This document shows positions 1 to 14,709 of a DNA stretch of 14,709 nucleotides, piece by piece. Every line of letters starts with the position of its first letter. Position 1 is the stretch's first letter. A model generated the notes under the pieces. The model was not told the DNA's origin. It saw only the letters and a list, made by a program, of their open reading frames with translations, and did no database searches. The translations under genes and the position numbers were made by a program. This DNA is from a virus (Duplodnaviria > Heunggongvirae > Uroviricota > Caudoviricetes): IMG/VR virus record IMGVR_UViG_2541047938_000005, one strand, 5' to 3'.

Positions 1-600
1 ATGGCGCATATACAACTGGTCAAACAAACCTCTTCTGGTTTACTTCTCCCGGCGACGCCGGAGAGTTGCGATTTTCTGCATCAAATCAAAATAGGTGAGT
101 GGATACACGCAGACTTTAAGCGTGTGCGTAACTACGCATTCCACAAGCGTTTTTTCAAACTCCTGCAACTGGGATTCGATTACTGGACTCCGGTCGGTGG
201 GGCGATCACGCCTCGCGAACGAGAACTGCTGTCTGGTTTCGTTGATTACCTGTGCGAATCAGTTGGTCGGGAACACACGCCAGCCCTGAGTGATGCCGCA
301 GAGCAATACCTTAACACCGTTGCGACTCGTAGAACCCGGGATACGGCGTTGCTAAAGTCGTTTGAGGCTTTCCGCGAGTGGGTAACCATTCAGGCCGGAT
401 TTTACACCGAGCATATTTATCCGGACGGTAGCCGTGGGCGTCGGGCAAAATCCATCGCTTTTGCGAATATGGACGAAGTCGAGTTTCAGCAGGTTTATAA
501 ATCTGTACTGAATGTGCTGTGGAACTGGATTCTGTTCCGTAAATTCTCCTCTCAGGAGGAAGTTGAAAATGTGGCCGCACAACTACTGGAGTTTGCGTAA
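1..600 (+). CDS. nin-region protein, DUF1367-like (function unknown)
   Basis: 199-aa ORF starting at window position 1, so the true start may lie upstream. Stop TAA overlaps the next start (TAATG at 598-602), suggesting translational coupling. Family assignment is from memory of lambdoid genes upstream of Q. Confidence 0.65.
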   Translation: MAHIQLVKQTSSGLLLPATPESCDFLHQIKIGEWIHADFKRVRNYAFHKRFFKLLQLGFDYWTPVGGAITPRERELLSGFVDYLCESVGREHTPALSDAAEQYLNTVATRRTRDTALLKSFEAFREWVTIQAGFYTEHIYPDGSRGRRAKSIAFANMDEVEFQQVYKSVLNVLWNWILFRKFSSQEEVENVAAQLLEFA

Positions 601-890
601 TGGTGAATTTACGTAAAGCGGCTAAAGGCCAGATGTGCCAGATCAGAATCCCTGGCTACTGCAATCACAATCCCGAAACCTCTGTGCTGGCGCATTACAG
701 GCTGGCGGGGACGTGCGGAACAGCGACAAAACCACATGATATGCAGGCGGCGATAGCCTGTAGCTCATGCCACGATCTAATCGACGGGCGGGTAAAAACC
801 AGCGATTACACCAAAGAAGAATTGCGCCTGATGCATGCTGAAGGGGTTTTTCGCACACAAGAAATCTGGAGAAAGAAAGGTCATTTATGA
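600..890 (+). CDS. YbcO-like Cys-rich nin-region protein (DUF1364, putative nuclease)
   Basis: 96 aa; motif MxxLRKAAxGxxCQxRIPGxCNxNPETSVLAH and CxxC pairs match what I recall of DLP12 YbcO. Start overlaps the upstream stop, and its own stop overlaps the Q start (ATGA at 887-890). Confidence 0.75.
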   Translation: MVNLRKAAKGQMCQIRIPGYCNHNPETSVLAHYRLAGTCGTATKPHDMQAAIACSSCHDLIDGRVKTSDYTKEELRLMHAEGVFRTQEIWRKKGHL

Positions 891-1429
891 TTTACCCAAC
901 GAATACAGGAAAAAGCGGAGAACACCTTCGCCTCACCACGCTGGAAAGTGTCTGGATTCAGGGAAAACTACGTATGTGGGGGCGCTGGTCGTATATTGGC
1001 GGTGGCAGGTCAGGGAATATGTTCAATCAGTTGTTGGCATCCAAAAAACTGACGAAAACAGCCATTAATGAAGCCCTGCGCAGAATGAAAAAAGCGGGAA
1101 TAGAGAAAGCTGAGCTGGAAGCGTTTTTGCGAGAGATGATCAACGGCAAGCAAAAGAGCTGGCTGGCGCATTGTACTGATGCAGAGGCGTTATGTATTGA
1201 TCGAGTCATAAGTGAGGTGCTGGCAGAGCATCCAGGATTGATTTGCATTCTCCGGCAACGCTATGAAGGGCGGGGGATGACTAAGCGCAAAATGGCTGAA
1301 TTGCTAAATGATGCACACCCAGAGTGGTGTTTTAGCACATGCGAAAAACGGATTGCTAATTGGTTAGCTGTTGCTGAGTATGCCCTATATATTCCCATGC
1401 GTGAATCATTTGCTGAGAAAATGGCTTGA
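887..1429 (+). CDS. Late-gene antitermination protein Q-like
   Basis: 180 aa, positioned right after nin genes and upstream of terminators and the lysis cassette. C-terminal segment MTKRKMAELLNDAHPEWCFSTCEKRIANWLAVAEYALY looks like a DNA-binding helix region. Family call is positional plus remembered similarity, not a search. Confidence 0.6.
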   Translation: MIYPTNTGKSGEHLRLTTLESVWIQGKLRMWGRWSYIGGGRSGNMFNQLLASKKLTKTAINEALRRMKKAGIEKAELEAFLREMINGKQKSWLAHCTDAEALCIDRVISEVLAEHPGLICILRQRYEGRGMTKRKMAELLNDAHPEWCFSTCEKRIANWLAVAEYALYIPMRESFAEKMA

Positions 1430-1507
1430 TTTCTTACGTATAAACTGCTTCAATTTTGCTATGCTTCGCAAAGCTGTATCGCGAGGCGGATTGCAGACAT
1501 GGACATC

Positions 1508-1538
1508 GTAAAAAAACCGCTTAATGCGGTTTTTTTAC
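1508..1538. terminator. Intrinsic terminator, probably bidirectional
   Basis: A-run (1510-1516), stem AACCGC (1515-1520) / GCGGTT (1526-1531), loop TTAAT, then T-run (1530-1536). About 80 nt downstream of the Q stop. Confidence 0.55.
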
Positions 1539-1856
1539 GTCAGGAAAGCAGGGGAGAATGCTGCTAGTTGGGCAACTGGTCTTTCTGCTCCAAATTATAA
1601 CAGAGACCAGTTATAGTTTCGGTGCTGTGTTTTTTTTACAATATTGTGATAACACATTGCTGGCGGGAGTTTTGATATTTCTTGGCAGGGGCTGATGATG
1701 CGTTATCCTGATGTCGTCAACTCATATAAAATGAGATGAGAGATCATTGCAGGGTGGTTTGTAATTCGCTGTTTAGCGGGACAATATGTTGTCTGATACA
1801 AGACACCCGACGCCTCAGATTACTATAATAAAGACGAAGCATCCTTTGTATTGACC

Positions 1857-1882
1857 AACCGCCTGTTTAGGCGGTTCTTTTT
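1857..1882 (+). terminator. Intrinsic terminator (candidate tR'-like element)
   Basis: Stem AACCGCC (1857-1863) / GGCGGTT (1870-1876), loop TGTTTA, followed by CTTTTT. A TATAAT hexamer lies at 1824-1829 without a convincing -35. Confidence 0.5.
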
Positions 1883-2414
1883 GGGCTGGTTTATTGTATG
1901 CCAAATGATTATTAAAAAGGTTGTGTTAATAACAAAATCCGAAATAATATGCCTGCATATTTTTATCTTGCTTATATTCTGCATATTGTGCATAGCAGGC
2001 TCATCCCTGCAATCAAAACTGTATGATGAGTATTTTTTGTTTTCCTTTTTTCCAGTCATCTGATGATGACCTGCTTCTTTTTAATCCGGATCGACATCAG
2101 TTTTTTAAGATAATTCCTGCGAGTTATATGCATAAATGCCACAAACTCCGCATTTTATGTGGTTGGGAGTTGCCGGGCGCGCAGTGAGTTTGCTAAGAAA
2201 ACTCCTGCATGGTGAATCCCCCTGTGCGGTGGGGTGATACCATTAACCTTTTCTGTCGCCGACAGGTATCACGAACATTTTGTTCACCGGGAGGCACCCG
2301 GCACCATGCACTTCAATAGATTCTCTCCACATTATGGATATTCTTTCAGAATATCCCACGCAGACTTTGTGTAAATGTTAACAAATGTGCGTTTTATTTG
2401 ATCTGATTCGCTGT

Positions 2415-2444
2415 TTGAGCGTCCAAAACAACGGTATATATAAT
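2415..2444 (+). promoter_or_regulatory. Candidate sigma70 promoter for the lipoprotein moron
   Basis: TTGAGC (2415-2420), 18-bp spacer, TATAAT (2439-2444, within TATATAAT), about 30 nt upstream of the GAGGA RBS at 2466-2470. Hexamer reading only. Confidence 0.3.
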
Positions 2445-2473
2445 CCTTTACTATATGACATATGTGAGGAAAA

Positions 2474-2902
2474 ATGGGTTTTCGTAGCGCATCAATTCTT
2501 ACGTTGATTATTAGTGGGATTATTATCGGGTGCACTGATGCTGTATCGACAAATTATCATGACCGTACATCATATTACTCCGATAAAGCAATAGAGACAC
2601 AGTATGTGAGTTCATCTGAACGTACTTCTGATGTTAGTGAGGATATCCGTCTGTATGCCCATCAAATCAAGAGCGCCATCGAAAAACAGTTCGGGGATGC
2701 GAGTAAGTATTCAGGAAAAGAGTGTACACTGAGAATGCATATGGCCCCGAATGGCCTTCTACTGGAGGTTAAAAGAGAAAGTGGAGACCTCGATTTATGT
2801 CGTGAAGCGATGAATGCGATAAAGAATGCTGATATACCTGCCCCCCCTTCGCCGGAAGTATATAAAGTATTTCAAAATGGGGTGCTGGATTTTAAACCCT
2901 GA
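2474..2902 (+). CDS. Lipoprotein with TolA C-terminal (domain III)-like module
   Basis: 142 aa. RBS GAGGA 2466-2470. N-terminal signal peptide with lipobox IIGC (Cys then Thr at +2, so no Asp Lol-avoidance signal). C-terminal ~85 aa track the TolA C-terminus as I recall it: YAHQIKSAIEKQF / CTLRMHMAPNGLLLEV / DLCREA / IPAPPSPEVYKVF / LDFKP. Confidence 0.8.
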   Translation: MGFRSASILTLIISGIIIGCTDAVSTNYHDRTSYYSDKAIETQYVSSSERTSDVSEDIRLYAHQIKSAIEKQFGDASKYSGKECTLRMHMAPNGLLLEVKRESGDLDLCREAMNAIKNADIPAPPSPEVYKVFQNGVLDFKP

Positions 2903-3052
2903 TATTTATTGTTTTGTAATAAACGGTTTCGGCTTAGGTTTGTTCTGACACAGCTACGGCACTGAGCTAAATTTAGCGGATAGTCAGCTCTGAGCCAGTG
3001 GCGGACGTAACAACTACTATTGCTGAGATTTTAATGGATTGAGGAGCAAGAA

Positions 3053-3448
3053 GTGGGATTAAAGAAAATCGTTATGTTGACTTTTTGGGTCGGTTTTGTT
3101 GCGGGATGCACACCTTTACACCCTTCAGATTGCCACAAAACTACTGCTACAGGTAGTTGCAGTTCAGGACGCTGGGATGATCAGGATGAATGGGGGGCGC
3201 AAGCGCGGGGAATCAGAGCTGCAATTAATGCCAAACTTGATGAGCCGCATAACTGGAAAGGGAAAAAATGCAGGTTGCATATGGAATTCTCTCAGGATGG
3301 CACGGCGTTAAAAATATCTACCAGTAACGGTGATAAAGCCTATTGCGAAGCGATAAAGTCCGCAGCTCATAAAGCCAAATTTCCGGCCTTCAACAATCCG
3401 GAAGTCTACAGAGATTTTCAGAAATCTGGCTTTGACATGCGAGGTTAG
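3053..3448 (+). CDS. Second, divergent lipoprotein with TolA domain III-like C-terminus
   Basis: 131 aa, GTG start 3053 with GAGGAG RBS 3041-3046. Lipobox VAGC with Thr at +2. C-terminus keeps the same scaffold in divergent form (KKCRLHMEFSQDGTALKI ... GDKAYCEAIKSAAHKAKFPAFNNPEVYRDFQ). No obvious terminator between the two genes, so probably co-transcribed. Confidence 0.7.
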   Translation: MGLKKIVMLTFWVGFVAGCTPLHPSDCHKTTATGSCSSGRWDDQDEWGAQARGIRAAINAKLDEPHNWKGKKCRLHMEFSQDGTALKISTSNGDKAYCEAIKSAAHKAKFPAFNNPEVYRDFQKSGFDMRG

Positions 3449-3573
3449 CTCTTCAATTACTATATCTCATTCATAGCAAACTGACAGATTTGATGATGTT
3501 CTATATACGAAACCTGTGATGTCAAGTCTGAGCTAATACAAATAAACATAATATCAGAGAAATACATTTTATT

Positions 3574-3596
3574 AGCTCGCTACGGCGAGCTTTTTA
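3574..3596 (+). terminator. Intrinsic terminator closing the lipoprotein moron
   Basis: Stem AGCTCGC (3574-3580) / GCGAGCT (3585-3591), loop TACG, followed by TTTTT. Confidence 0.5.
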
Positions 3597-3699
3597 TATT
3601 GCATCGTCTCCAGCATATATATCAATTAAGGCTCTGATTGATGTGTCTGAAAGCCTACACATAATAACTATGCCATCCGTTCCGTGCGGAGGTGAGGCT

Positions 3700-3915
3700 A
3701 TGAAATCCATGGACAAAATTTCAACAGGCATTGCCTACGGCACCTCCGCAGGCAGTGCTGGCTACTGGTTTTTACAGTTGCTCGATAGAGTAACTCCGTC
3801 ACAGTGGGCTGCAATCGGTGTGCTGGGTAGTCTGGTATTTGGCCTGCTGACGTACCTGACAAACCTTTATTTCAAGATTAAAGAAGATAAGCGCAAGGCT
3901 GCGAGAGGTGAATAA
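3700..3915 (+). CDS. S: Class II holin (pinholin), phage 21 S-type, with dual-start motif
   Basis: 71 aa: [26 protein letters not shown] ... [20 protein letters not shown]. Two in-frame starts (Met1 at 3700, Met4 at 3709) fit the antiholin/holin pair known for S21. The ORF track's upstream GTG (3643) is probably not the start; GGAGGTGAGG RBS at 3689-3697. Confidence 0.9.
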
Positions 3916-4412
3916 TGCCTCCATCATTACGAAAAGTCGTTGCTGCTGCTATTGGTGGCGGAGCAATTGCTATAGCATCAGTGTTAATCACTGGCCCAAG
4001 TGGTAACGATGGTCTGGAAGGTGTCAGCTACATACCATACAAAGATATTGTTGGTGTATGGACTGTATGTCACGGGCATACAGGAAAAGACATCATGCTC
4101 GGTAAAACGTATACCAAAGCAGAATGCAAAACACTCTTGAATAAAGACCTTGCCACTGTCGCCAGACAAATTAACCCGTACATCAAAGTCGATATACCGG
4201 AAACAACGCGCGGCGCTCTTTACTCATTCGTTTACAACGTGGGTGCTGGCAATTTCAGAACATCGACGCTTCTTCGCAAAATAAACCAGGGCGATATCAA
4301 AGGCGCATGTGATCAGCTACGTCGCTGGACATATGCTGGCGGTAAGCAATGGAAAGGTCTCATGACTCGTCGTGAGATTGAGCGTGAAATCTGTTTGTGG
4401 GGTCAGCAATGA
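3915..4412 (+). CDS. R: SAR (signal-arrest-release) endolysin, phage 21 R-type lysozyme
   Basis: 165 aa. Gly/Ala-rich N-terminal SAR helix ([20 protein letters not shown]), then lysozyme core with the E..D..T catalytic spacing ([24 protein letters not shown]). Start overlaps the S stop (TAATG). Confidence 0.9.
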
Positions 4413-4873
4413 ACAGAGTAACCGCGATTATCTCCGCTCTGGTTATCTGCATCATCGTCTGCCTGTCATGGGCTGTTAATCATTACCGTGATAACGCCAT
4501 TACCTACAAAGCCCAGCGCGACAAAAATGCCAGAGAACTGAAGCTGGCGAACGCGGCAATTACTGACATGCAGATGCGTCAGCGTGATGTTGCTGCGCTC
4601 GATGCAAAATACACGAAGGAGTTAGCTGATGCGAAAGCTGAAAATGATGCTCTGCGTGATGATGTTGCCGCTGGTCGTCGTCGGTTGCACATCAAAGCAG
4701 TCTGTCAGTCAGTGCGTGAAGCCACCACCGCCTCCGGCGTGGATAATGCAGCCTCCCCCCGACTGGCAGACACCGCTGAACGGGATTATTTCACCCTCCG
4801 GGAACGACTGGTAATGATGCAGGCCCAACTTGAAGGTGCTCAGCAATACATAACCGAGCAGTGTTTAAAGTAA
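4409..4873 (+). CDS. Rz: Rz inner-membrane spanin (i-spanin), lambda-type
   Basis: 154 aa from ATG 4409, overlapping the R stop (ATGA). N-terminal TM segment then coiled-coil periplasmic domain; close to lambda Rz as I recall it. Confidence 0.9.
4629..4814 (+). CDS. Rz1: Rz1 outer-membrane lipoprotein spanin (o-spanin), embedded in Rz in the +1 frame
   Basis: 61 aa: [20 protein letters not shown] (lipobox) followed by a proline-rich segment [23 protein letters not shown] about 8 nt upstream. Fully nested in Rz as in lambda. Confidence 0.85.
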
Positions 4874-5010
4874 AATCTTAACTACAATATGATTCATTTT
4901 GATGATTGTTTCATAAGGAACAGTGAAGTAAGATCTAAGAGGAGTTAAATTTTATACAGTATAATCATAATATTGCAGCAAGGTGGTTATAATTGAAAGA
5001 ATATTTAGAT

Positions 5011-6468
5011 ATGAATACATCTCATGTAAGAGTTGTTACTCATATGTGTGGGTTCCTGGTTTGGCTCTATAGTCTTTCAATGTTGCCACCAATGGTTGTA
5101 GCATTGTTTTATAAAGAAAAAAGCCTGTTCGTTTTCTTTATAACTTTCGTTATATTTTTTTGCATTGGTGGCGGAGCGTGGTATACAACTAAGAAATCTG
5201 GCATTCAATTACGTACCCGTGATGGGTTTATTATAATTGTAATGTTTTGGATTTTGTTTTCTGTTATTAGTGCATTCCCTTTATGGATTGACTCAGAACT
5301 TAATTTAACGTTCATTGATGCTCTGTTTGAAGGGGTTTCTGGAATAACAACAACAGGAGCAACTGTAATTGATGATGTTAGTTCATTACCTCGGGCATAT
5401 TTGTACTATCGGTCACAGTTAAATTTTATAGGTGGTTTAGGAGTTATTGTTCTGGCGGTTGCAGTATTGCCATTATTGGGTATTGGTGGTGCAAAGCTTT
5501 ATCAGTCAGAAATGCCGGGGCCATTTAAGGATGACAAACTCACTCCCCGCCTGGCCGATACGTCACGGACACTGTGGATAACTTATTCTTTATTAGGTAT
5601 TGCTTGTATTGTCTGTTATAGACTTGCAGGAATGCCTTTGTTTGATGCTATTTGTCACGGGATTTCCACAGTTTCGCTTGGTGGTTTCTCAACTCATAGC
5701 GAGAGTATCGGATATTTTAATAACTATTTGGTTGAGCTGGTGGCTGGTTCTTTTTCCCTGCTATCGGCTTTCAACTTCACTCTTTGGTATATTGTTATTA
5801 GCAGAAAAACGATAAAACCTTTAATCAGAGATATTGAACTTCGTTTCTTTCTGTTAATAGCCTTAGGGGTGATCATTGTTACCTCTTTCCAGGTCTGGCA
5901 TATAGGTATGTATGACTTGCATGGAAGTTTTATTCATTCGTTTTTTCTTGCCAGCTCCATGCTCACTGATAATGGTTTAGCTACGCAGGATTATGCAAAC
6001 TGGCCCACGCACACGATAGTGTTTTTGCTGTTGTCAAGTTTCTTTGGGGGATGTATAGGTTCAACCTGTGGTGGAATTAAGTCACTTCGATTTCTTATAC
6101 TTTTCAAACAAAGCAAACACGAGATAAATCAGCTTTCTCATCCCAGAGCGTTGTTGAGTGTAAATGTAGGAGGGAAGATAGTTACAGATCGTGTAATGAG
6201 GTCTGTATGGAGTTTCTTTTTTCTTTATACTCTCTTCACGGTGTTTTTTATACTGGTGTTAAATGGTATGGGATATGATTTTCTTACATCATTTGCAACA
6301 GTGGCTGCATGTATTAATAATATGGGATTAGGTTTTGGGGCTACTGCATCGTCATTCGGAGTGCTTAATGACATTGCAAAATATTTAATGTGCATAGCTA
6401 TGATTCTTGGTCGCCTTGAAATTTATCCTGTTATTATATTGTTTTCAGGTTTTTTTTGGCGCTCCTAA
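5011..6468 (+). CDS. trkG: Trk-system K+ uptake protein TrkG (TrkH/KtrB family)
   Basis: 485 aa from ATG 5011 (MNTSHVRVV...). Multi-pass membrane protein with repeated pore-loop-like glycine motifs (GITTTG, IGGLG, VSLGGF, TCGGIKS). Visibly AT-rich compared with flanking phage genes. trkG is an established Rac cargo gene. Confidence 0.9.
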   Translation: MNTSHVRVVTHMCGFLVWLYSLSMLPPMVVALFYKEKSLFVFFITFVIFFCIGGGAWYTTKKSGIQLRTRDGFIIIVMFWILFSVISAFPLWIDSELNLTFIDALFEGVSGITTTGATVIDDVSSLPRAYLYYRSQLNFIGGLGVIVLAVAVLPLLGIGGAKLYQSEMPGPFKDDKLTPRLADTSRTLWITYSLLGIACIVCYRLAGMPLFDAICHGISTVSLGGFSTHSESIGYFNNYLVELVAGSFSLLSAFNFTLWYIVISRKTIKPLIRDIELRFFLLIALGVIIVTSFQVWHIGMYDLHGSFIHSFFLASSMLTDNGLATQDYANWPTHTIVFLLLSSFFGGCIGSTCGGIKSLRFLILFKQSKHEINQLSHPRALLSVNVGGKIVTDRVMRSVWSFFFLYTLFTVFFILVLNGMGYDFLTSFATVAACINNMGLGFGATASSFGVLNDIAKYLMCIAMILGRLEIYPVIILFSGFFWRS

Positions 6469-6605
6469 TATATGGCTGATTTATAATTGTGAGTTTAATA
6501 TTATGTTGACTCACTCATTGATCCAATACCTAACTTTACCAGCAACACCTCCGCCCCCAGTAGCACTGGCTGCTGGGGTGCGTTTTATTCATAAAGCAAG
6601 GCTGT

Positions 6606-7659
6606 ATGAGCGAGAAATTAAAGATAGTCTATCGCCCATTACAAGAATTGTCACCGTATGCGCACAACGCCAGGACGCACAGTACTGAGCAGGTGGCACA
6701 ACTGGTAGAAAGTATTAAGCAATTCGGCTGGACTAATCCGGTGCTGATTGACGAAAAGGGCGAAATTATTGCGGGTCACGGTCGTGTTATGGCGGCTGAA
6801 ATGCTCAAAATGGATTCTGTTCCGGTCATTGTTCTGTCTGGCCTGACGGATGAGCAGAAAAAGGCGTACCGCCTGGCAGATAATCGCCTGCCGATGAATG
6901 CTGGCTGGGATGAAGATCTGTTGCGGATGGAGCTGTCGGACCTAATCAATGCTGATTTTGATGTCTCCCTGACAGGCTTCATCCCGGCAGAAATTGATGA
7001 ACTGTTGACGGATGTTTTGCCCGGTACAGGAAATGAGGAGGAGCCGTATACGACGAAAATTGATACGCCTGTTTATGAGCCGTCAGGCGGTAAACCGGAT
7101 ATCAGTGAACTGTACGACGATACGAAAACTCAGGAGCTGATCAGCCGGATACGTTCGGCGTCCCTTGAATCATCTCTACCAGTGGCGCGATATAGCAGAA
7201 TTCGACAAGGCAGCGGCGCAGGCTTCCAGAGATGGCAAACCCGAACCGGAATATGGAGGCCTCGGCTTTGTTGATAACGCCATACCCAATCCGGACTGCC
7301 CGAAGTGCTGCGGTGAGGGAACGGGACAGCTTTATATGGCTGATACCACTCTGCTTGATGGGGATGCGCGGCAATTATATGCAGGGGCAAAATTCGGAAA
7401 ATTCGGCGTTGAGATCCTGCTGGAGGATAAGGCTGCCGCCCGGCGTGAATTGTTGCGTTTGTTTTCTGCTGGCGGGGCTTTATGTGCAGATAAGCGGCTA
7501 CGGGAACTGGAAATTGAACGGCGCAGAATGGAAAACCAGAAGCTGCGCAAAGAGATCGAAACGGTGGAAGATAATGAACATCCCCAGCCTGTGGCGATCA
7601 ATATTAATGTGGTTGATGCCAGAGTAAGGAGTGATGAAGATGATCTCTCCGACGCTTAA
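6606..7659 (+). pseudogene. ParB-like N-terminal domain protein (candidate small terminase subunit), reading frame disrupted near 7141-7170
   Basis: Frame 0 ORF 6606-7274 begins with a ParB N-terminal domain-like sequence (LKIVYRPLQELSPYAHNARTHS ... IIAGHGR). A +1 frame ORF is open from 7141 and runs to 7659, ending in a coiled-coil/acidic tail. A one-base shift near 7164-7168 would join them into ~350 aa. Could be a true frameshift, a sequencing error or programmed. Confidence 0.5.
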
Positions 7660-8941
7660 TGTGCCTCAGGCGCGATTTCTTTCAATGCCCCATAAATTTA
7701 AAGCCTATATTGCTGGTTTTGGCTCGGGCAAAACATGGGTTGGGTGTGGCGGCATATGCAAGGGGATTTGGGAGCATCCAGGTATAAATCAGGGATATTT
7801 TGCGCCAACGTATCCCCAAATTCGCGATATTTTTTACCCTACAGTGGAAGAAGTTGCTGCTGACTGGGGATTGAACGTAAAAATTAATGAGGGAAATAAA
7901 GAGGTTCACTTTTATTACGGACGCCAGTATCGGGGAACCACTATCTGCAGATCGATGGAGAAGCCACAAACGATCGTCGGTTTCAAAATTGGTAATGCGT
8001 TGGTGGATGAACTGGACATTTTGCCGAAGGAAAAAGCCAGAACGGCGTGGCGCAAGATAATTGCACGTATGCGTTATAAGATTGATGGACTTCGCAACGG
8101 TATTGACGTTACAACCACGCCGGAAGGATTCAAATTTGTCTACGAGCAGTTTGTTAAAGCCGTGCGTGAAAAAACAGAGCTGGCCTCACTGTATGGTCTG
8201 GTGCAGGCATCTACTTTCGATAATGAAAAGAACCTGCCAGCAGATTACATTCCTTCGCTTCTTGAATCATACCCTCCAGAGCTGATTAAAGCCTATCTTC
8301 GAGGACAGTTTACTAACCTGACAAGTGGTACTGTTTACCATCAGTTTGACCGGAAACTGAATAATTGCGAAGAAGTGGAGCAGCCAGGGGAGCCGATTTA
8401 TATTGGGATGGATTTTAACGTTGGAAAGATGGCGGGAATCGTCCATGTGCTGCGTTTGGGGCTTCCATGTGCGGTAACTGAAATCATCAATGCCTACGAT
8501 ACGCCGGATATGATCCGCATCATTAAAGAACGCTTCTGGCTGTATGATGGGAATGATTACCGGAAAGTGAGGGAAATTTATATTTATCCAGATGCTTCCG
8601 GGGATTCCAGAAAATCAAGTAACGCAAGTACGACGGATATAGCCCAGCTTAAGCAGGCTGGTTTTAACGTTGTGGTGAACAGCTCGAACCCGCCAGTAAA
8701 AGATCGCGTTAACTCAATGAATGCAATGTTCTGCAATGCCAATGGTGAGCGTCGCTATAAAGTTAATGTGAAGCGTTGCCCGTTATATGCCGAATCTCTG
8801 GAGCAACAGGTCTGGGATGAGAAGGGGGAGCCTGATAAAAAATCTGGCAATGATCACCCGAATGATGCCGGAGGTTATTTCATCGTTAAGCAATTCCCTA
8901 TTGTCAAACCGACCGGAAGAGTCACATCACTTCGGATTTAA
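7640..8941 (+). CDS. Terminase large subunit (TerL)
   Basis: Walker A (GFGSGKT), Walker B-like (ALVDELD) and nuclease-domain acidic motifs (IGMDFNV, YPDASGD, NDHPNDAGG). AAGGAG RBS 7626-7631 favours ATG 7640 over the GTG at 7631. About 434 aa, apparently full length. Confidence 0.85.
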   Translation: MISPTLNVPQARFLSMPHKFKAYIAGFGSGKTWVGCGGICKGIWEHPGINQGYFAPTYPQIRDIFYPTVEEVAADWGLNVKINEGNKEVHFYYGRQYRGTTICRSMEKPQTIVGFKIGNALVDELDILPKEKARTAWRKIIARMRYKIDGLRNGIDVTTTPEGFKFVYEQFVKAVREKTELASLYGLVQASTFDNEKNLPADYIPSLLESYPPELIKAYLRGQFTNLTSGTVYHQFDRKLNNCEEVEQPGEPIYIGMDFNVGKMAGIVHVLRLGLPCAVTEIINAYDTPDMIRIIKERFWLYDGNDYRKVREIYIYPDASGDSRKSSNASTTDIAQLKQAGFNVVVNSSNPPVKDRVNSMNAMFCNANGERRYKVNVKRCPLYAESLEQQVWDEKGEPDKKSGNDHPNDAGGYFIVKQFPIVKPTGRVTSLRI

Positions 8942-8943
8942 TT

Positions 8944-9883
8944 ATGGCTGATATATCAACACCCAACCTCGACTATAACGATATGCTGGAGGCGTGGGAT
9001 ATTAACGACGCACTGATGGGCGGTACGCTTGAAATGCGCAGGCAGGGGGAAAATTATCTCCCAAAATGGCCTAACGAAGATGAAGACGCTTATAAAAAAC
9101 GCCTGTCTGTGGCTACGCTACTTCCTGTGTATGAAGAAAGCATCAAGCAAAATATTGGGCGCATATTTGCAGAGCCGACAGTATTGAGTGAGGAAACGCC
9201 GGCAAAAATCAGGGAATATGCAGAAAATATCGACATGGAGGGGAGCCGACTGGATGTGTGGGCGCAGCAATTTTTCAGCCTCGCATTTCAGTATGGTGTG
9301 GCACATGCGCTGGTGGACTATCCACGAACGGATATGAAAGAGATTCGGACAAAAGCCGATGAAAACGCGACCGGTGGAGGGATTCAATATTCACAGTTCG
9401 GCAGGTGTGAAACGAGCGCCAAAGGTTGCTGCAACTGGTTATCTCGTGAATGGAGAGAAAAAAGAAGGCGATGTTCTTATTTCCATTGATACTGGTTCGG
9501 GGAGTATTTCTGCAGGTCAGATTGTTACGTTCGCTGGTGATCCGAATCAGTATGTTGTGGCAGCAGCGACCAGCAATCTGATTACTCTTGCAGCGCCCGG
9601 ACTGCGTCAGGATCTGGCCGATGATACTGCCATCACAGTTGTTGGGGCCTTTACTGCAAATATGGCGTTTGATCGCAACGCGTTTCTGCTGGCATCCCGT
9701 ACTCCGGCAATGCCGGAAGGTGGCGATAATGCTGATGATGTAATGAATGTTACGGACCCGATTTCAGGGATTACGTTCCAGATTGCACTGTATCGTCAGT
9801 ATCGCCAGGTGCGCTATGAAGTTGGACTGGCATGGGGTGTTTCATCAGTGAAGCCGGCACATGGTTGTCTGATTCTTGGTTAA
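8944..9883 (+). pseudogene. Head-module remnant: 5' part of a head gene (tentatively portal-like) joined out of frame to the 3' part of a capsid-like gene
   Basis: ORF 8944-9489 ends in junk-like residues; the next frame (open through 9883) carries a C-terminus with an HK97-fold-capsid-like motif (RTPAMPEGG) and is followed by a strong terminator. No full-length portal, protease or capsid gene sits between TerL and the head-tail genes. Domain identities are tentative. Confidence 0.4.
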
Positions 9884-9891
9884 ACATTCAA

Positions 9892-9913
9892 ACGGGGCTT
9901 CGGCCCCATTTTT
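9892..9913 (+). terminator. Intrinsic terminator after the capsid-like gene end
   Basis: GGGGC (9894-9898), UUCG tetraloop, GCCCC (9903-9907), then ATTTTT. Confidence 0.6.
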
Positions 9914-9925
9914 AATGGGGGGCAT

Positions 9926-10102
9926 ATGGCCGGATTAACTAAAGAGCAAAGAGCACAGCGTGAAGCCGCACAAAAAACGCAAATTGAGTTAGTGGTTATG
10001 GTGACCGATTATCAGATGTTTCCCGGCGCACCAACTATCGCTAATGTTCATCCTGATGAAGTTGACAACTGGAAGGCTATGGGCTGGAAAACTCAGGAGT
10101 AA
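9926..10102 (+). CDS. Small hypothetical protein (58 aa)
   Basis: ATG 9926 to TAA 10100-10102, below the ORF-track threshold. Fills the gap between the terminator and the next gene; translation MAGLTKEQRAQREAAQKTQIELVV... is not low-complexity. Weak RBS. Confidence 0.25.
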   Translation: MAGLTKEQRAQREAAQKTQIELVVMVTDYQMFPGAPTIANVHPDEVDNWKAMGWKTQE

Positions 10103-10105
10103 CAC

Positions 10106-10501
10106 ATGATCACTTACGTGACCTGTGATGACGTTGATAATGCGTTTGGGAACGCCTGGACGAGTGAGAACGCTAAAAATAAAGCTGTTTTAATGGCTAA
10201 TGCCTGGCTTAATGGCTTCAACCTGAAAATTAACCCATCCCGTATTCCGGAAGAGGTAAAACTTGCGGGAGCATATGCAGCCAGAATTGCCTCATTCGGT
10301 AAGTTGTTTCAGCAGAAAAATGATTCTGGCGTTGTTATCAGTAAAGCCGTGTCGGCTGACGGGGTCAGTGTATCGAAATCATTTTCTGAGTTGCCAGCAA
10401 ACAGCACTGCATTGCTTGAACCCGATTTACAGCTTGCGATAGCACTGCTGAAACCGTACGGACTTAGTCGCTCACAAGTCAGGGTTGTGAGGGGGGGATA
10501 A
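10106..10501 (+). CDS. Head-tail connector protein (gp6-like), putative
   Basis: 131 aa, CAGGAG RBS 10094-10099, first of four tightly coupled small genes between the capsid remnant and the major tail gene. Assigned by position and size. Confidence 0.45.
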   Translation: MITYVTCDDVDNAFGNAWTSENAKNKAVLMANAWLNGFNLKINPSRIPEEVKLAGAYAARIASFGKLFQQKNDSGVVISKAVSADGVSVSKSFSELPANSTALLEPDLQLAIALLKPYGLSRSQVRVVRGG

Positions 10502-10884
10502 TGGGGCTTCGTGAAGAGATTCAGTCAGAGGTTGCCGCTGCTTTTGATGAGGATTTAGCGGACGCCGTGAGTGATTTTTCTGGTTCTTACGTTACGCACC
10601 GGCACTGGGATCCTGTGACGGAAACTGGCGGCGAATCCACCGCAATCTATACCGGGCGAGGCGTGTTGACACGTTATAAGCTGGGCAGAATTGATGGGAT
10701 TAATATTTTGCATGGTGACCTTAAATTAACCGCTCTGGTATGCGAGGTTACGGATAAACCAGCTGTCGACCATATTATTGAGATTTATGATCCTGTATCA
10801 AGGCAGTTACAACGATACGAGGTAATTACAGCAAGTGTAGATCCTTCCGCATCAGTTTACTCTATCCAGTTAAGGAGAGCGTAA
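10501..10884 (+). CDS. Head-tail adaptor / head closure protein, putative
   Basis: 127 aa; start overlaps the upstream stop (TAATG). Positional assignment. Confidence 0.4.
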   Translation: MGLREEIQSEVAAAFDEDLADAVSDFSGSYVTHRHWDPVTETGGESTAIYTGRGVLTRYKLGRIDGINILHGDLKLTALVCEVTDKPAVDHIIEIYDPVSRQLQRYEVITASVDPSASVYSIQLRRA

Positions 10885-11265
10885 ATGGCAAAGGCATGGG
10901 ATATAGAACCGTCAATATTTGCCGGGATGATTGAGGAAGATGTAGGGCTGAAGATTCGCTACATCGCTATGCAGATTCTTACTGCTATTGATATTGCTGC
11001 TCCGGTTGATACCGGACGTTTCAGAAATAACAACCTGGTGTCGTTACAGCATCCCGATTTTGGTATATCTGATAACGTGGATCCGAACGGTACGATTGCT
11101 GTTCAGCGTGGGATCGGGGTTATTTCGAAAGCTGCAAATTACGGGGTTATTTATATCCAGAATAACCTTCCTTATGCAGAGGCTCTTGAAAACGGTCATT
11201 CACAACAAGCGCCAACTGGCGTGTATGCCAACGCTTTTCATGGTGTTTTACAGGCTTACAAATGA
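10885..11265 (+). CDS. HK97 gp10-family neck/tail completion protein
   Basis: 126 aa; contains the PVDTGRFR motif I associate with the HK97 gp10 family; AGGAG RBS upstream. Confidence 0.55.
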   Translation: MAKAWDIEPSIFAGMIEEDVGLKIRYIAMQILTAIDIAAPVDTGRFRNNNLVSLQHPDFGISDNVDPNGTIAVQRGIGVISKAANYGVIYIQNNLPYAEALENGHSQQAPTGVYANAFHGVLQAYK

Positions 11266-11654
11266 AGTTTACTGAAATCAGAAATACGGTTATTTCCAGA
11301 ATGACGGCACAGACGATTATTGATGGAAAAGACGTATTGTATCCGAACGGGCCAACGTTCGATCCTTCCGGTAAGTTAATCTGGGCGCGGTTAAGTAATA
11401 TTCCCGGGCAGGCTGGAGTTAATGAAATTGGCGCGGGGCCGGTTGTTTATCGCACGGGGATAATCATTATTCAGTTATTTGTCCCCGCAGGTTCTGGTTC
11501 AAAACTCATTACTGAGACAGCCGATAAATTGCGGGAACTGTTTGAGTTTCAGGATGACGATCGTCTCAGTTACCAGGCTGTTTCCTCAATAGCCGTTGGC
11601 GAAAAGAATGGCTGGTTCCAGCTTAATCTTCAAATTCCATATCGCGCGCTCTAG
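11262..11654 (+). CDS. Tail terminator / tail completion protein (gpU-like), putative
   Basis: 130 aa; ATGA overlap with the upstream gene; sits immediately before the major tail gene. Confidence 0.4.
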   Translation: MKFTEIRNTVISRMTAQTIIDGKDVLYPNGPTFDPSGKLIWARLSNIPGQAGVNEIGAGPVVYRTGIIIIQLFVPAGSGSKLITETADKLRELFEFQDDDRLSYQAVSSIAVGEKNGWFQLNLQIPYRAL

Positions 11655-11680
11655 CGCAATTAATGACATAGGAGGCTCCT

Positions 11681-12643
11681 GTGAGTTCAGGTGCAAAGGT
11701 TATCTCGGCATTTATCCGGGAGACGGTTGCAGGCACTACGCCAGCAAGTGGTGACTGGAGTTTATTAAAACGCACAAGCTGGGGAGTAAAACCCACCCAG
11801 AATAAAGGCGAAAATAATGAGATTGGTGGCTCCCGGATGGCTCAGGGGGCGACGCCTGGCACTGTGGATGTCGGCGGTGATGTTGGTACCAAATTTCGCT
11901 GGGGTCAACATGATGATTTTCTTGCATCCTGTTTCGGCGCGGAATGGTCAGGCGATTCTCTGACAATGGGGAATGAGCGAATAACATTTTCTCTGGCGAC
12001 CTATGCGTCCGATGTCGGAATTGCCTCTGTCGTCAGAGGAGCGCAGGTTGGCTCATGGAAAATGCAGATCCCTAACGACGGCGATATTACAGCGACCGTA
12101 ACCTTTGCCGGACTGGACTGGGAATCAAAGGCCGATGATACGAATTTTATCAAAGGCGAACCTGTGGATAGTGCAGGAAAGCTACGTTATTCGTTTAAGG
12201 AGGTTTCAGCAGTAAGCCTGAATGGTGTTGCCGGAGGTAACGGTTTTTGTATCGACAGTTTTGATATTCAGTTCGATAACAAACTCCAGACACAGCGTTG
12301 TATCGGGACTGGCTCGCCTTATGCAGGAGCAAATATTCCGACTACTTTTACACCGTCCGGTACGGTGACGCTTTCATGGTCTAAAGCCGCGTGGGAAATC
12401 TGGAGTAAAACACTGACTGGAGAAACAGTTCCGTTCAGCTTCACGCTTTCGAATGGAGAGGGGGCATACACTTTCAGTTTCCCGAAGGTTCAGGTGTCAG
12501 GTGAATGGCCTGATGGGGGTAATAGCGACATTATCCAGGTTCAATTGAGCATTACCGCAGCAGATGAAGCACCTACGATAACCAGAAAAAAAAATTCCCC
12601 GGCTGCCGTGATCGCAAAAGCCAGTGCTGAGGCGATTAGTTGA
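11681..12643 (+). CDS. Major tail (tube) protein, putative
   Basis: 320 aa, GTG start with GGAGG RBS. Gly/Ser/Thr-rich, beta-type composition, positioned between neck genes and the chaperone-like gene. Confidence 0.5.
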   Translation: MSSGAKVISAFIRETVAGTTPASGDWSLLKRTSWGVKPTQNKGENNEIGGSRMAQGATPGTVDVGGDVGTKFRWGQHDDFLASCFGAEWSGDSLTMGNERITFSLATYASDVGIASVVRGAQVGSWKMQIPNDGDITATVTFAGLDWESKADDTNFIKGEPVDSAGKLRYSFKEVSAVSLNGVAGGNGFCIDSFDIQFDNKLQTQRCIGTGSPYAGANIPTTFTPSGTVTLSWSKAAWEIWSKTLTGETVPFSFTLSNGEGAYTFSFPKVQVSGEWPDGGNSDIIQVQLSITAADEAPTITRKKNSPAAVIAKASAEAIS

Positions 12644-12691
12644 TTTTCCGTTATTCCTCCTGTGGTACTGCCCTACAGGGGGACGCATTGA

Positions 12692-13153
12692 ATGAGGTTA
12701 TGGATGTTTATTCTTAATCAGAAAATTATCATTGGTGGAGAACGCTGGTTTACGCCAATGAAGGACTTAAAACCTGTAGACGGGTTAAAACTGTTGGTGG
12801 CAAGCAGCGATAACGATCAGTATCGCTCCCGTAATGCATTAATCCGTCGCCACATTGAGAAAATGGATGCCAGTTTGCACGTCGGAACGAAGGAGTTTGA
12901 TATTTCAAAGGTTTCCGAGGTGGATTCTGTTGATGATTTACTCATTGATAATGCCGCTCGTTATCTGCTGAAAGACTGGAAAGGGGTTGGTGAACTGGTT
13001 AATGGTGTTGAGGTTGCACTGGAATATACGGCAGAACGAGGGATCGCGCTGCTTAAGCAGAATCCAGAGTTGTACTGGCAGATCCTTGCAGAAGCAGCCA
13101 GCATCGCCCAGGGTAAAGAGCAGCAGAAGCAGGATACGATAAAAAAGCCATAG
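12692..13153 (+). CDS. Tail assembly chaperone-like protein (gpG-like), putative
   Basis: 153 aa, acidic, immediately after the major tail gene. No in-frame or -1 continuation into a T/tape-measure ORF; ends at TAG 13151-13153. Confidence 0.4.
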   Translation: MRLWMFILNQKIIIGGERWFTPMKDLKPVDGLKLLVASSDNDQYRSRNALIRRHIEKMDASLHVGTKEFDISKVSEVDSVDDLLIDNAARYLLKDWKGVGELVNGVEVALEYTAERGIALLKQNPELYWQILAEAASIAQGKEQQKQDTIKKP

Positions 13154-13276
13154 CTGCCCAGCGGTGGTTATCGGAGTTCGGGGGAGAAAGGGGGGAAAAG
13201 GCAAGATGGAAGCGAGAAAAACTCAGGTTGCCACCGATATCCAACAGCGTATGGAAATATCATTCACCTGAAAGGG

Positions 13277-14125
13277 ATGACAGCCGTTGGCGAAGGTGAG
13301 TTACTCATCGGCTGGAGTGGTACAAGCGGTGCTCATGCTCCGGCATTTATTCGTTCACGACGGGATACGACCGACGCAAACTGGTCGCCGTGGGCGCAGC
13401 TTTACACCTCGGCTCATCCTCCTGCAGAGTTTTATCCAGTCGGTGCACCAATCCCGTGGCCATCAGATACCGTTCCGTCTGGTTATGCCCTGATGCAGGG
13501 GCAGACTTTTGACAAATCTGCATACCCGAAACTTGCAGTTGCTTATCCGTCAGGCGTGATCCCTGATATGCGTGGCTGGACGATTAAGGGCAAGCCCGCC
13601 AGTGGTCGGGCCGTATTATCTCAGGAACAGGACGGCATTAAATCGCACACCCACAGCGCCAGCGCATCCAGTACGGATTTGGGGACGAAAACCACATCGT
13701 CGTTTGATTACGGAACCAAATCCACGAATAACACCGGGGTGCATACCCATAGTATTAGCGGGACCGCAAATAGTGCTGGTGCGCACCAACACAAGAGTTC
13801 CGGTGCATTTGGTGGCACGAACACGAGCATTTTCCCTAATGGTTATACCGCGATTTCAAATCTAAGCGCGGGGATTATGAGCACAACAAGCGGTAGTGGC
13901 CAGACTCGTAATGCAGGGAAGACATCATCAGATGGTGCTCATACCCACTCGCTGTCCGGCACTGCTGCAAGCGCAGGCGCACATGCACATACTGTCGGTA
14001 TTGGTGCTCATACGCACTCCGTTGCGATTGGTTCACATGGACACACCATCACCGTTAACGCTGCTGGTAACGCGGAAAACACCGTCAAAAACATCGCATT
14101 TAACTATATTGTGAGGCTTGCATAA
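13277..14125 (+). CDS. stf: Side tail fiber protein, C-terminal receptor-binding portion only (collar-like domain plus His-x-His repeats)
   Basis: 282 aa. [50 protein letters not shown] followed by repeated HTHS/HAHT/HGHT motifs and the lambda Stf-like ending [14 protein letters not shown]. The long N-terminal shaft of full-length Stf (about 700-1100 aa) is missing. Confidence 0.8.
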
Positions 14126-14709
14126 TGGCATTCAGAATGAGTGAACAACCACGGACCATAAAAATTTATAATCTGCTGGCCGGAACTAATGAATTTATTG
14201 GTGAAGGTGATGCATATATTCCGCCTCATACAGGTCTGCCAGCAAACAGTACCGATATTGCACCGCCAGATATTCCGGCTGGCTTCGTGGCTGTTTTCAA
14301 CAGTGATGAGTCATCGTGGCATCTCGTTGAAGATCATCGGGGTAAAACGGTTTATGACGTGGCTTCCGGCGACGCGTTATTTATTTCTGAACTCGGTCCG
14401 TTACCGGAAAATGTTACCTGGTTATCGCCGGAAGGGGAGTTTCAGAAGTGGAACGGCACAGCCTGGGTGAAGGATACGGAAGCAGAAAAACTGTTCCGGA
14501 TCCGGGAGGCGGAAGAAACAAAAAACAACCTGATGCAGGTAGCCAGTGAGCATATTGCGCCGCTTCAGGATGCTGCAGATCTGGAAATTGCAACGGAGGA
14601 AGAAATCTCGTTGCTGGAAGCATGGAAAAAGTATCGGGTATTGCTGAACCGTGTTGATACGTCAACTGCACCTGATATTGAGTGGCCTACGAACCCTGTC
14701 AGGGAGTAA
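14125..14709 (+). CDS. tfa: Tail fiber assembly protein (Tfa)
   Basis: 194 aa beginning [34 protein letters not shown], characteristic of lambdoid Tfa/TfaR-type chaperones. Start overlaps the stf stop (TAATG). Stop codon is at the window end. Confidence 0.9.

Follow-up and report, generated by a model that had tools for sequence, protein, structure and literature searches.

Genes and features of the locus

The window considered here, by which is meant the whole stretch of 14,709 nucleotides that was analysed, is an exact substring, base for base, of scaffold KE702357.1 in assembly GCA_000461255.1 of E. coli UMEA 3329-1, the strain name being that given by the protein records EQZ01485.1 and EQZ01494.1. 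The host prophage belongs to the Rac family of lambdoid prophages, because it carries the markers trkG, the ParB-like ynaK, and ydaY; it is also nearly identical to prophages at the Rac site and has the uspF-ompN flank. It is integrated at the Rac site, and on the 3' side of tfa the sitDCBA genes are followed by uspF, ompN, and nifJ. The prophage retains a lysis cassette, trkG, TolA-like genes, terL, head-completion genes, the tube gene, ydaY, the 3' end of the fibre gene, and tfa. All of the sequence features listed in an initial annotation of this DNA were recovered in place by direct reading, ORF listing, and translation. The genes and features of the window, including three junctions designated J1, J2, and J3, are as follows.

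7167-7168, no strand: deletion junction J1, as read from alignment, with GA microhomology; 1,945 bp lost, the ParB-like ynaK being joined to the middle of the small terminase gene
9375-9377, no strand: deletion junction J2, as read from alignment, with TGG microhomology; 3,670 bp lost, the N-terminal part of the portal gene (DUF4055) being fused to the C-terminal part of a P22-type capsid gene
11681-12643, + strand: tail tube protein gene, intact (Pfam Phage_tube_2, E = 9.4e-32; annotated in relatives as 'phage tail tube protein')
12692-13153, + strand: ydaY, gpG-like tail assembly chaperone gene, intact (phrog_313, E = 4e-46; PF27119 Phage_YdaY)
13141-13147, + strand: predicted -1 slippery heptamer A_AAA_AAG, the sole X_XXY_YYZ heptamer in the frame overlap
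13147-13239, + strand: what is left of the -1-frame T extension (31 native codons), with a motif conserved in Klebsiella and Erwinia relatives
13206-13271, + strand: 21-codon mini-ORF, a chimera across J3, judged spurious
13236-13239, no strand: deletion junction J3, as read from alignment, with GATA microhomology; 12,322 bp missing
13240-13299, + strand: out-of-frame tail of the truncated G-T fusion (GT'), 19 aberrant codons of fibre DNA in the wrong frame, with the stop TGA at 13297-13299
13240-14125, + strand: stf C-terminal remnant, about codons 731-1024 of 1,024 (alignment to the Stf of strain C2; Pfam Collar and Phage_fiber repeats; phrog_295)
13277-14125, + strand: longest ATG ORF in the fibre remnant, 282 codons, its start being the internal Met743
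14125-14709, + strand: tfa, tail fibre assembly protein gene, intact (Pfam Caudo_TAP, E = 3.8e-44; phrog_105, E = 5.7e-100)

The tube gene is the final complete structural gene 5' of the chaperone gene. The extent of ydaY depends on the start that is adopted: the longest ORF begins at 12692 (153 codons), gene callers place the start at 12704 (149 aa), and the K-12-type RefSeq start corresponds to 12794 (119 aa). The name of the phrog_313 profile is 'Tail assembly chaperone', and the PF27119 Phage_YdaY assignment comes from precomputed annotation. The initial annotation had described the tape measure and tail-tip genes as missing, and this is borne out by the wider context, as there are none in the window or in the flanking chromosome, where sitDCBA lies directly 3' of tfa.

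The chaperone gene pair and its predicted shift site

In intact relatives ydaY lies between the tube and tape-measure genes, the latter being deleted in the window, and this position coincides with its homology to the tail assembly chaperones of phrog_313. In intact phages the -1 frame opens 37 nt ahead of the ydaY stop and runs on for about 104 further codons. This -1 ORF is conserved in phages of Klebsiella, Erwinia, Pseudomonas, and Acinetobacter, in every case as a second frame that follows the chaperone, and in the Klebsiella and Erwinia relatives the motif WL.EF.GE.GEKA.W.REKL.LPP is kept. When ydaY is fused to the -1 frame of an intact phage, the match to phrog_313 lengthens from 13-149 to 13-246 of 258 and its score rises from 159 to 174 bits; the full T part alone matches phrog_1189 (E = 1.4e-36) and, weakly, Pfam Phage_TAC_18. 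To judge from these comparisons, Rac-type phages have their G/GT chaperone pair in ydaY and its -1 ORF.

Where the zero and -1 frames overlap, over 37 nt, there is a single heptamer of the form X_XXY_YYZ, the A_AAA_AAG at 13141-13147, which is two codons 5' of the TAG. A Klebsiella phage whose protein is about 65% identical has A_AAA_AAG at the equivalent place, and Acinetobacter phage TCUAN1 has G_GGA_AAG. Both heptamers are highly shift-prone in E. coli, and the G/GT arrangement is widely conserved in long-tailed phages (PMC5009743). The heptamer at 13141-13147 is the likely site of a G-T shift, frameshifting here being predicted from the arrangement of the two frames. No frameshift-stimulating structure was detected, the fold of 13141-13235 being no better than those of shuffled sequences (z = +0.94), and there is no match to an Rfam frameshift element at the shift site.

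The best known counterpart is the programmed -1 frameshift of the lambda G and GT proteins (Levin, Hendrix and Casjens 1993; Xu, Hendrix and Duda 2004, both as cited in PMC5009743). The two systems have in common a chaperone gene between those of the tube and the tape measure, a conserved -1 ORF that overlaps its 3' end, and a heptamer shortly before the stop, but the heptamer of the present locus is A_AAA_AAG, of the dnaX type, whereas that of lambda is G_GGA_AAG. A further difference is that the T domain is truncated to 31 codons in UMEA 3329-1, where the tape measure gene is also deleted, so that the system should be unable to work. The predicted GT' of the window has 202 aa as compared with 256 aa in the intact phage; its T domain consists of 31 native codons, after which 19 wrong-frame fibre codons lead to the TGA at 13297-13299. 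It should be noted that in about 2,000 E. coli records neither the -1 T extension nor the shift site is annotated by RefSeq.

Structure and distribution of junction J3

The intact relatives examined were FDAARGOS_497, a record called Salmonella phage SPF_0923, NCTC10444, and strain C2. The order of genes in intact relatives is tube, ydaY, tape measure, M, L, K, I, J, lom, stf, and tfa, with a tape measure gene of 3.2 kb and a fibre gene of 3.0-3.1 kb (1,008-1,024 codons). The possibility that a fibre gene of this kind is naturally short, which the initial annotation had named as an observation that would overturn its reading, was rejected, as the relatives have full-length, 1,024-codon genes annotated 'phage tail protein' and the fibre is nowhere shorter than 1,008 codons in those examined.

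Alignment to intact Rac-like prophages, the comparison that the initial annotation had proposed for locating the breakpoint, places the break between 13239 and 13240. Its suggestion of a deletion junction is thereby upheld, with a breakpoint (13236-13240) that falls within the interval it had indicated. At J3, DNA 86 nt beyond the ydaY stop is coupled to fibre nt 2186-2190, which corresponds to codon 730 of 1,024, and the DNA missing between these points comprises most of the T extension, the tape measure gene, gpM/L/K/I/J, lom, and stf codons 1 to about 730. In a megablast search of 5,426 complete E. coli genomes, the segment 12600-13400 matched 1,955 records, none of them across 13239; in these genomes the 640 nt to the left and the 168 nt to the right are matched only as separate segments, and the same is true of phage records.

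The relationship to individual relatives is close. Against NCTC10444, positions 1-7168 align with 3 mismatches, and the segments 7167-9377 and 9375-13239 match perfectly (100%); positions 1-13239 thus form three blocks with 3 differing bases in total, between which NCTC10444 has extra DNA, and past 13239 NCTC10444 matches again only about 12.3 kb downstream, at the 3' end of the fibre gene. Strain C2 is 99.8% identical to the window on the left of J3 (9375-13239) and 99.6% identical on the right (13233-14687, stf-tfaR), so that both flanks are colinear with and nearly identical to a single intact relative that has 12,322 bp between them. The missing lengths were all measured against C2 and amount to 1,945 bp at J1, 3,670 bp at J2, and 12,322 bp at J3. 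It should be recognized that the exact parent is absent among sequenced genomes, the closest relative of the left flank being NCTC10444 and those of the right flank being alleles of the C2 or Qin type; the event is pieced together from a mosaic of related genomes, and the true length of the deletion may be a few bases more or less.

The microhomologies at J1, J2, and J3 are 2, 3, and 4 nt, respectively, and the probability of a sum of at least 9 for random breakpoints in the same DNA is 0.003, a value that fits replication slippage or end joining, either of which may have been the mechanism of the deletions. Apart from short chance repeats, no insertion sequences, att sites, long repeats, or ends of mobile elements were found in 12600-13400. 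A random or artificial splice in the window is unlikely, given the microhomology statistics and the existence of the public record. The Logan contig SRR958752_98 is identical to window positions 4764-13265 and crosses J1, J2, and J3 without a mismatch; it is reported in 4 samples, and the contig may derive from reads of the same isolate. The NCBI scaffold and the Logan contig, which are independent assemblies, agree across all three junctions. None of the three junctions is present in the 5,426 complete E. coli genomes, the exact 37-nt sequence of J3 has zero matches in GTDB species representatives, IMG/VR, and JGI metagenomes, and the products of the chimeric ORFs are each recorded from one NCBI contig. 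From these absences, and because the chimeric products come from one contig each, the deletions appear to be recent and specific to the lineage.

Several features near J3 had been described in the initial annotation as suggestive. One is the continuity of frame between ydaY and the fibre ORF, which is present in the ORF listing and translation: ydaY ends at the TAG at 13151-13153, and the zero frame is then open for 41 codons (13154-13276) into the fibre ATG at 13277. In the E. coli parent, the zero frame past the TAG is open for 33 codons, and in the Klebsiella relative it is closed after 6; the frame shared by ydaY and the fibre gene is a one-in-three accident of the deletion. The stretch from the TAG to the fibre ATG had been viewed as a gap, a description that does not hold, as it is made up of 31 surviving -1-frame T codons joined to internal fibre codons. 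A second feature is the G/A-rich run GGGGGAGAAAGGGGGGAAAAGG at 13180-13201, which had been likened to the GGGAAAG slippery site of lambda. The run exists, but a role as a slippery site was rejected: it is located after the stop in the zero frame, and in the -1 frame it is read as 10 conserved codons of the T domain.

The third feature is the 21-codon ORF at 13206-13271, which, as had been described, has a strong G-rich ribosome-binding site and ends 5 nt 5' of the fibre ATG at 13277. The pairing of its G-run with the anti-Shine-Dalgarno (SD) sequence at the 16S 3' end has a calculated energy of -11.2 kcal/mol, which is in the top 0.6% of the 331 ATGs of the window. The same G/A run and mini-ORF start are, however, found without change in about 1,950 E. 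coli records in which the locus is intact. Of the residues of the mini-ORF, 11 come from the +1 frame of the parental T region and 10 from fibre DNA, its parental counterpart being a non-conserved 20-codon ORF whose end is replaced by fibre DNA in the window. The mini-ORF frame lacks an ATG in the Klebsiella relative and is interrupted by stops in the Erwinia relative. Neither the zero frame nor the mini-ORF is conserved in either of these relatives, whereas a read-through product or a coupled leader would be expected to be conserved. Because of this lack of conservation, the mini-ORF and the open zero frame appear to be incidental, and the features taken as suggestive are best regarded as coincidental by-products of T coding and the deletion.

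The fibre remnant matches Pfam Collar (E = 8.3e-12) and Phage_fiber repeats, and aligns with positions 576-794 of the 794 of phrog_295; these are C-terminal parts only. The remnant thus has the collar and fibre-repeat region of a side tail fibre and is followed by the cognate tfa, but the N-terminal tail-anchoring domain is absent, with only codons 731-1024, approximately, being left. The ATG at 13277 is immediately preceded by a weak SD sequence (-4.2 kcal/mol), with no spacer between the two. Between 11600 and 14709, promoter-like sites are no more frequent than expected by chance, and the only one on the + strand 5' of 13277 is inside the tube gene. Because the N-terminal anchoring domain is absent, the remnant is probably a pseudogene fragment like stfQ; it would be non-functional, and its sole likely role would be as a recombination substrate for incoming lambdoid phages.

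Probable prophage decay and alternative explanations

From its sequence, the interval is very probably a scar left in the decaying Rac-family prophage of UMEA 3329-1 by an illegitimate, microhomology-mediated deletion of 12,322 bp. The left break would lie inside the -1-frame T extension of ydaY, 31 codons 3' of the predicted A_AAA_AAG site, and the right break in the side tail fibre gene, near codon 730 of its 1,024. The phenomenon is one of ordinary prophage decay, which is already known, and there is no new expression mechanism.

It is very unlikely that the arrangement is instead a functional one, in which the fibre fragment is made by termination and reinitiation at the end of the mini-ORF or of GT', or by read-through of the ydaY amber codon to give a YdaY-linker-fibre fusion; the fragment and Tfa together might benefit the host, one conceivable role being that of a receptor-blocking protein. 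The SD-like run at the ATG at 13206, the spacing of 5 nt between the mini-ORF stop and the fibre ATG, with which some coupled translation is physically possible, the 41 open codons that lead from the ydaY frame into the fibre frame, and the intact state of tfa are all in keeping with such expression, but the mini-ORF start and its G-run are the same in intact prophages, where they are inside the T coding region, and it is only the -1 frame, as opposed to the mini-ORF or the zero frame, that is conserved in the Klebsiella and Erwinia relatives. Furthermore, there is no sign of selection, because the junction is found in one strain only; the fibre start has a poor SD sequence and no promoter-like site above chance upstream of it, and the fragment is without the domain by which a fibre is attached to the tail. 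A further reading, that the three deletions were one burst, arising for instance by end-joining after abortive induction or nuclease attack, and left a selected, coupling-expressed fibre C-terminus and tfa that bind receptor to the benefit of the host, is highly improbable. The basis for a single burst is that the prophage is otherwise almost identical to an intact one, with 3 mismatches in 13.2 kb; the coupling would be through the mini-ORF or the GT' terminator.

Two other explanations concern the origin of the junction. The source is a short-read draft assembly of 2013, fibre 3' ends are repeated among the prophages of one genome and often confuse assemblers, and the Logan contig ends 26 nt past J3; nevertheless, it is extremely improbable that the assembler skipped DNA really present in the strain and that there was no deletion, as two assemblies share an identical junction and the Logan contig spans J1 and J2 in addition to J3. 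The left breakpoint is in unique DNA with no repeat, the 2-4 nt shared at the junctions are far below what is needed for the collapse of a k-mer graph, and three junctions of the same style within 6 kb indicate real DNA. Recombination with another resident prophage, such as one with a Qin-type stf remnant, would imply a larger chromosomal rearrangement and has a negligible probability. The right flank is 92% identical to the fibre gene of NCTC10444 and 99.7% identical to the Qin-type stf/tfaQ of E. coli C, which would agree with such an exchange, but the native Rac flank sitDCBA-uspF-ompN-nifJ is found 3' of tfa, as in NCTC10444 and ON032529, and there are Rac prophages that have this fibre allele (C2, 99.6%). 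Extended homology is absent at the junction, and the left breakpoint of the Qin remnant is a different one, about 90 nt away.

The Qin stfQ/tfaQ remnant of K-12 and E. coli C is nonetheless similar in kind to the remnant in the window, since it too is a 5'-truncated stf that retains the C-terminal receptor-binding part and is followed by an intact tfa, with DNA that is 99.7% identical. It differs in that it starts at fibre nt 2095 beside ynfO/ydfO, whereas the remnant in the window starts at about nt 2186-2190 beside the T remnant of ydaY, and in that the window remnant has no pin invertase on its 3' side. A breakpoint shared with the stf remnant of E. coli C was considered and rejected, that breakpoint being about 90 nt upstream of the right break of J3 and having another left partner. 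Because of this distance and the different left partners, the Qin remnant and J3 appear to be the results of independent events.

The Rac prophage of K-12 provides a comparison within the same family. It occupies the same uspF/ompN site, has the markers trkG, ParB-like ynaK, and ydaY together with an stf/tfa pair, and is similarly defective through internal deletions that fuse gene fragments. However, the fusions in K-12 are ynaK::ydaY, with the loss of all head genes, and ynaA::lomR, with the loss of the region from the tape measure to lom, and stfR is full-length. In contrast, the UMEA 3329-1 copy has kept terL, the head-completion genes, and the tube gene, and has lost the region from the T extension to fibre codon 730. 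By this comparison, K-12 Rac is a copy of the same prophage that has decayed independently.

The consequences for the prophage of UMEA 3329-1 can be predicted from its gene content. The three microhomology deletions would have taken parts of the small terminase, portal, scaffold, and capsid genes, and that at J3 the whole of the apparatus for tail length, the tail tip, and fibre attachment. With lambda tail assembly as the basis, gpG would be without its partner, the tape measure, and GT' without the tube-binding part of T. This prophage should accordingly be incapable of building heads, tails, or particles.

The present analysis corrects the annotation of the locus, in that ydaY encodes the gpG-type chaperone of Rac-type phages, which has a T extension in the -1 frame that is missing from annotations and a predicted shift site, A_AAA_AAG, of the dnaX type. 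Its significance beyond annotation is small, but it provides a base-resolved map of the breakpoints by which a lambdoid prophage has been disabled through short-microhomology deletions, with the lysis genes, the cargo genes (trkG, TolA-like genes), the 3' end of stf, and tfa all retained. Fibre remnants of the Qin stfQ kind recombine with infecting lambda, and the fibre remnant and tfa of UMEA 3329-1 are the kind of sequence that infecting lambdoid phages can acquire by recombination (PMC3945230).

Additional deletions and retained genes in the prophage

Besides the junction at the fiber gene, the window prophage carries two more clean deletion junctions, each of which produces a chimeric ORF (6606-7274 and 8944-9489, respectively); neither junction is present in any of the 5,426 complete E. 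coli genomes.

7167-7168: deletion junction joining the ParB-like gene ynaK to the middle of terS, with loss of 1,945 bp
9375-9377: deletion junction between the portal and capsid genes (N-terminal part of the former, C-terminal part of the latter), with loss of 3,670 bp

The late region also holds cargo genes, and these have all been kept although the structural genes have decayed.

2474-2902 and 3053-3448: two genes, each for a protein with a TolA C-terminal domain, in the interval from the Q-like antiterminator gene to the holin gene
4993-6468: trkG, a K+ transporter gene, with the lysis cassette on one side and the packaging genes on the other

Two Rfam matches were found in the window.

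2177-2363, plus strand: sRNA STnc100, 86.6 bits (gathering score 47)
14468-14666, plus strand: IS009, 220.9 bits (gathering score 117)

The STnc100 match falls in the same interval from the Q-like antiterminator gene (887-1429) to the holin gene, a position which suggests that it represents the leader transcript of the late promoter. The IS009 match is wholly contained in the coding sequence of tfa, the tail fiber assembly gene.

Annotation of ydaY and status of the comparison records

The RefSeq entry for ydaY, the gpG-like tail assembly chaperone gene, is the K-12-type protein of 119 residues (window 12794-13153), and in the comparison loci L001, L003, and L007 (E. coli C2) neither the T extension in the −1 frame (window 13141-13239) nor a frameshift has ever been annotated by RefSeq; part of T is entered in phage records as a separate "hypothetical protein." The full-length chaperone has 149-153 residues, and the G-T fusion in intact relatives is predicted to have about 256.

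The large terminase gene of the E. coli C2 prophage (L007 23901-25202) contains an internal stop, and therefore the best "intact" prophage for comparison is itself already defective. ON032529.1, "Salmonella phage SPF_0923," is labeled a "complete phage genome," and sitABCD, uspF, and ompN lie downstream of its tfa (L002 28143-33885). Across the query it matches E. coli Rac-site DNA at 100% identity, and it appears to be a prophage region from an E. coli chromosome rather than a packaged Salmonella phage genome.

Comparison with the fiber remnant of Qin

The remnant of the side tail fiber gene, stf, in the Qin prophage of E. coli C (L014 4908-5886) begins at fiber nucleotide 2095. The right breakpoint of the fiber-gene deletion in the window is only some 90 nt away from this point, but the two left partners differ. 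Independent truncations have therefore retained nearly the same C-terminal part of the fiber together with tfa; the near coincidence may reflect chance, selection, or a module boundary.
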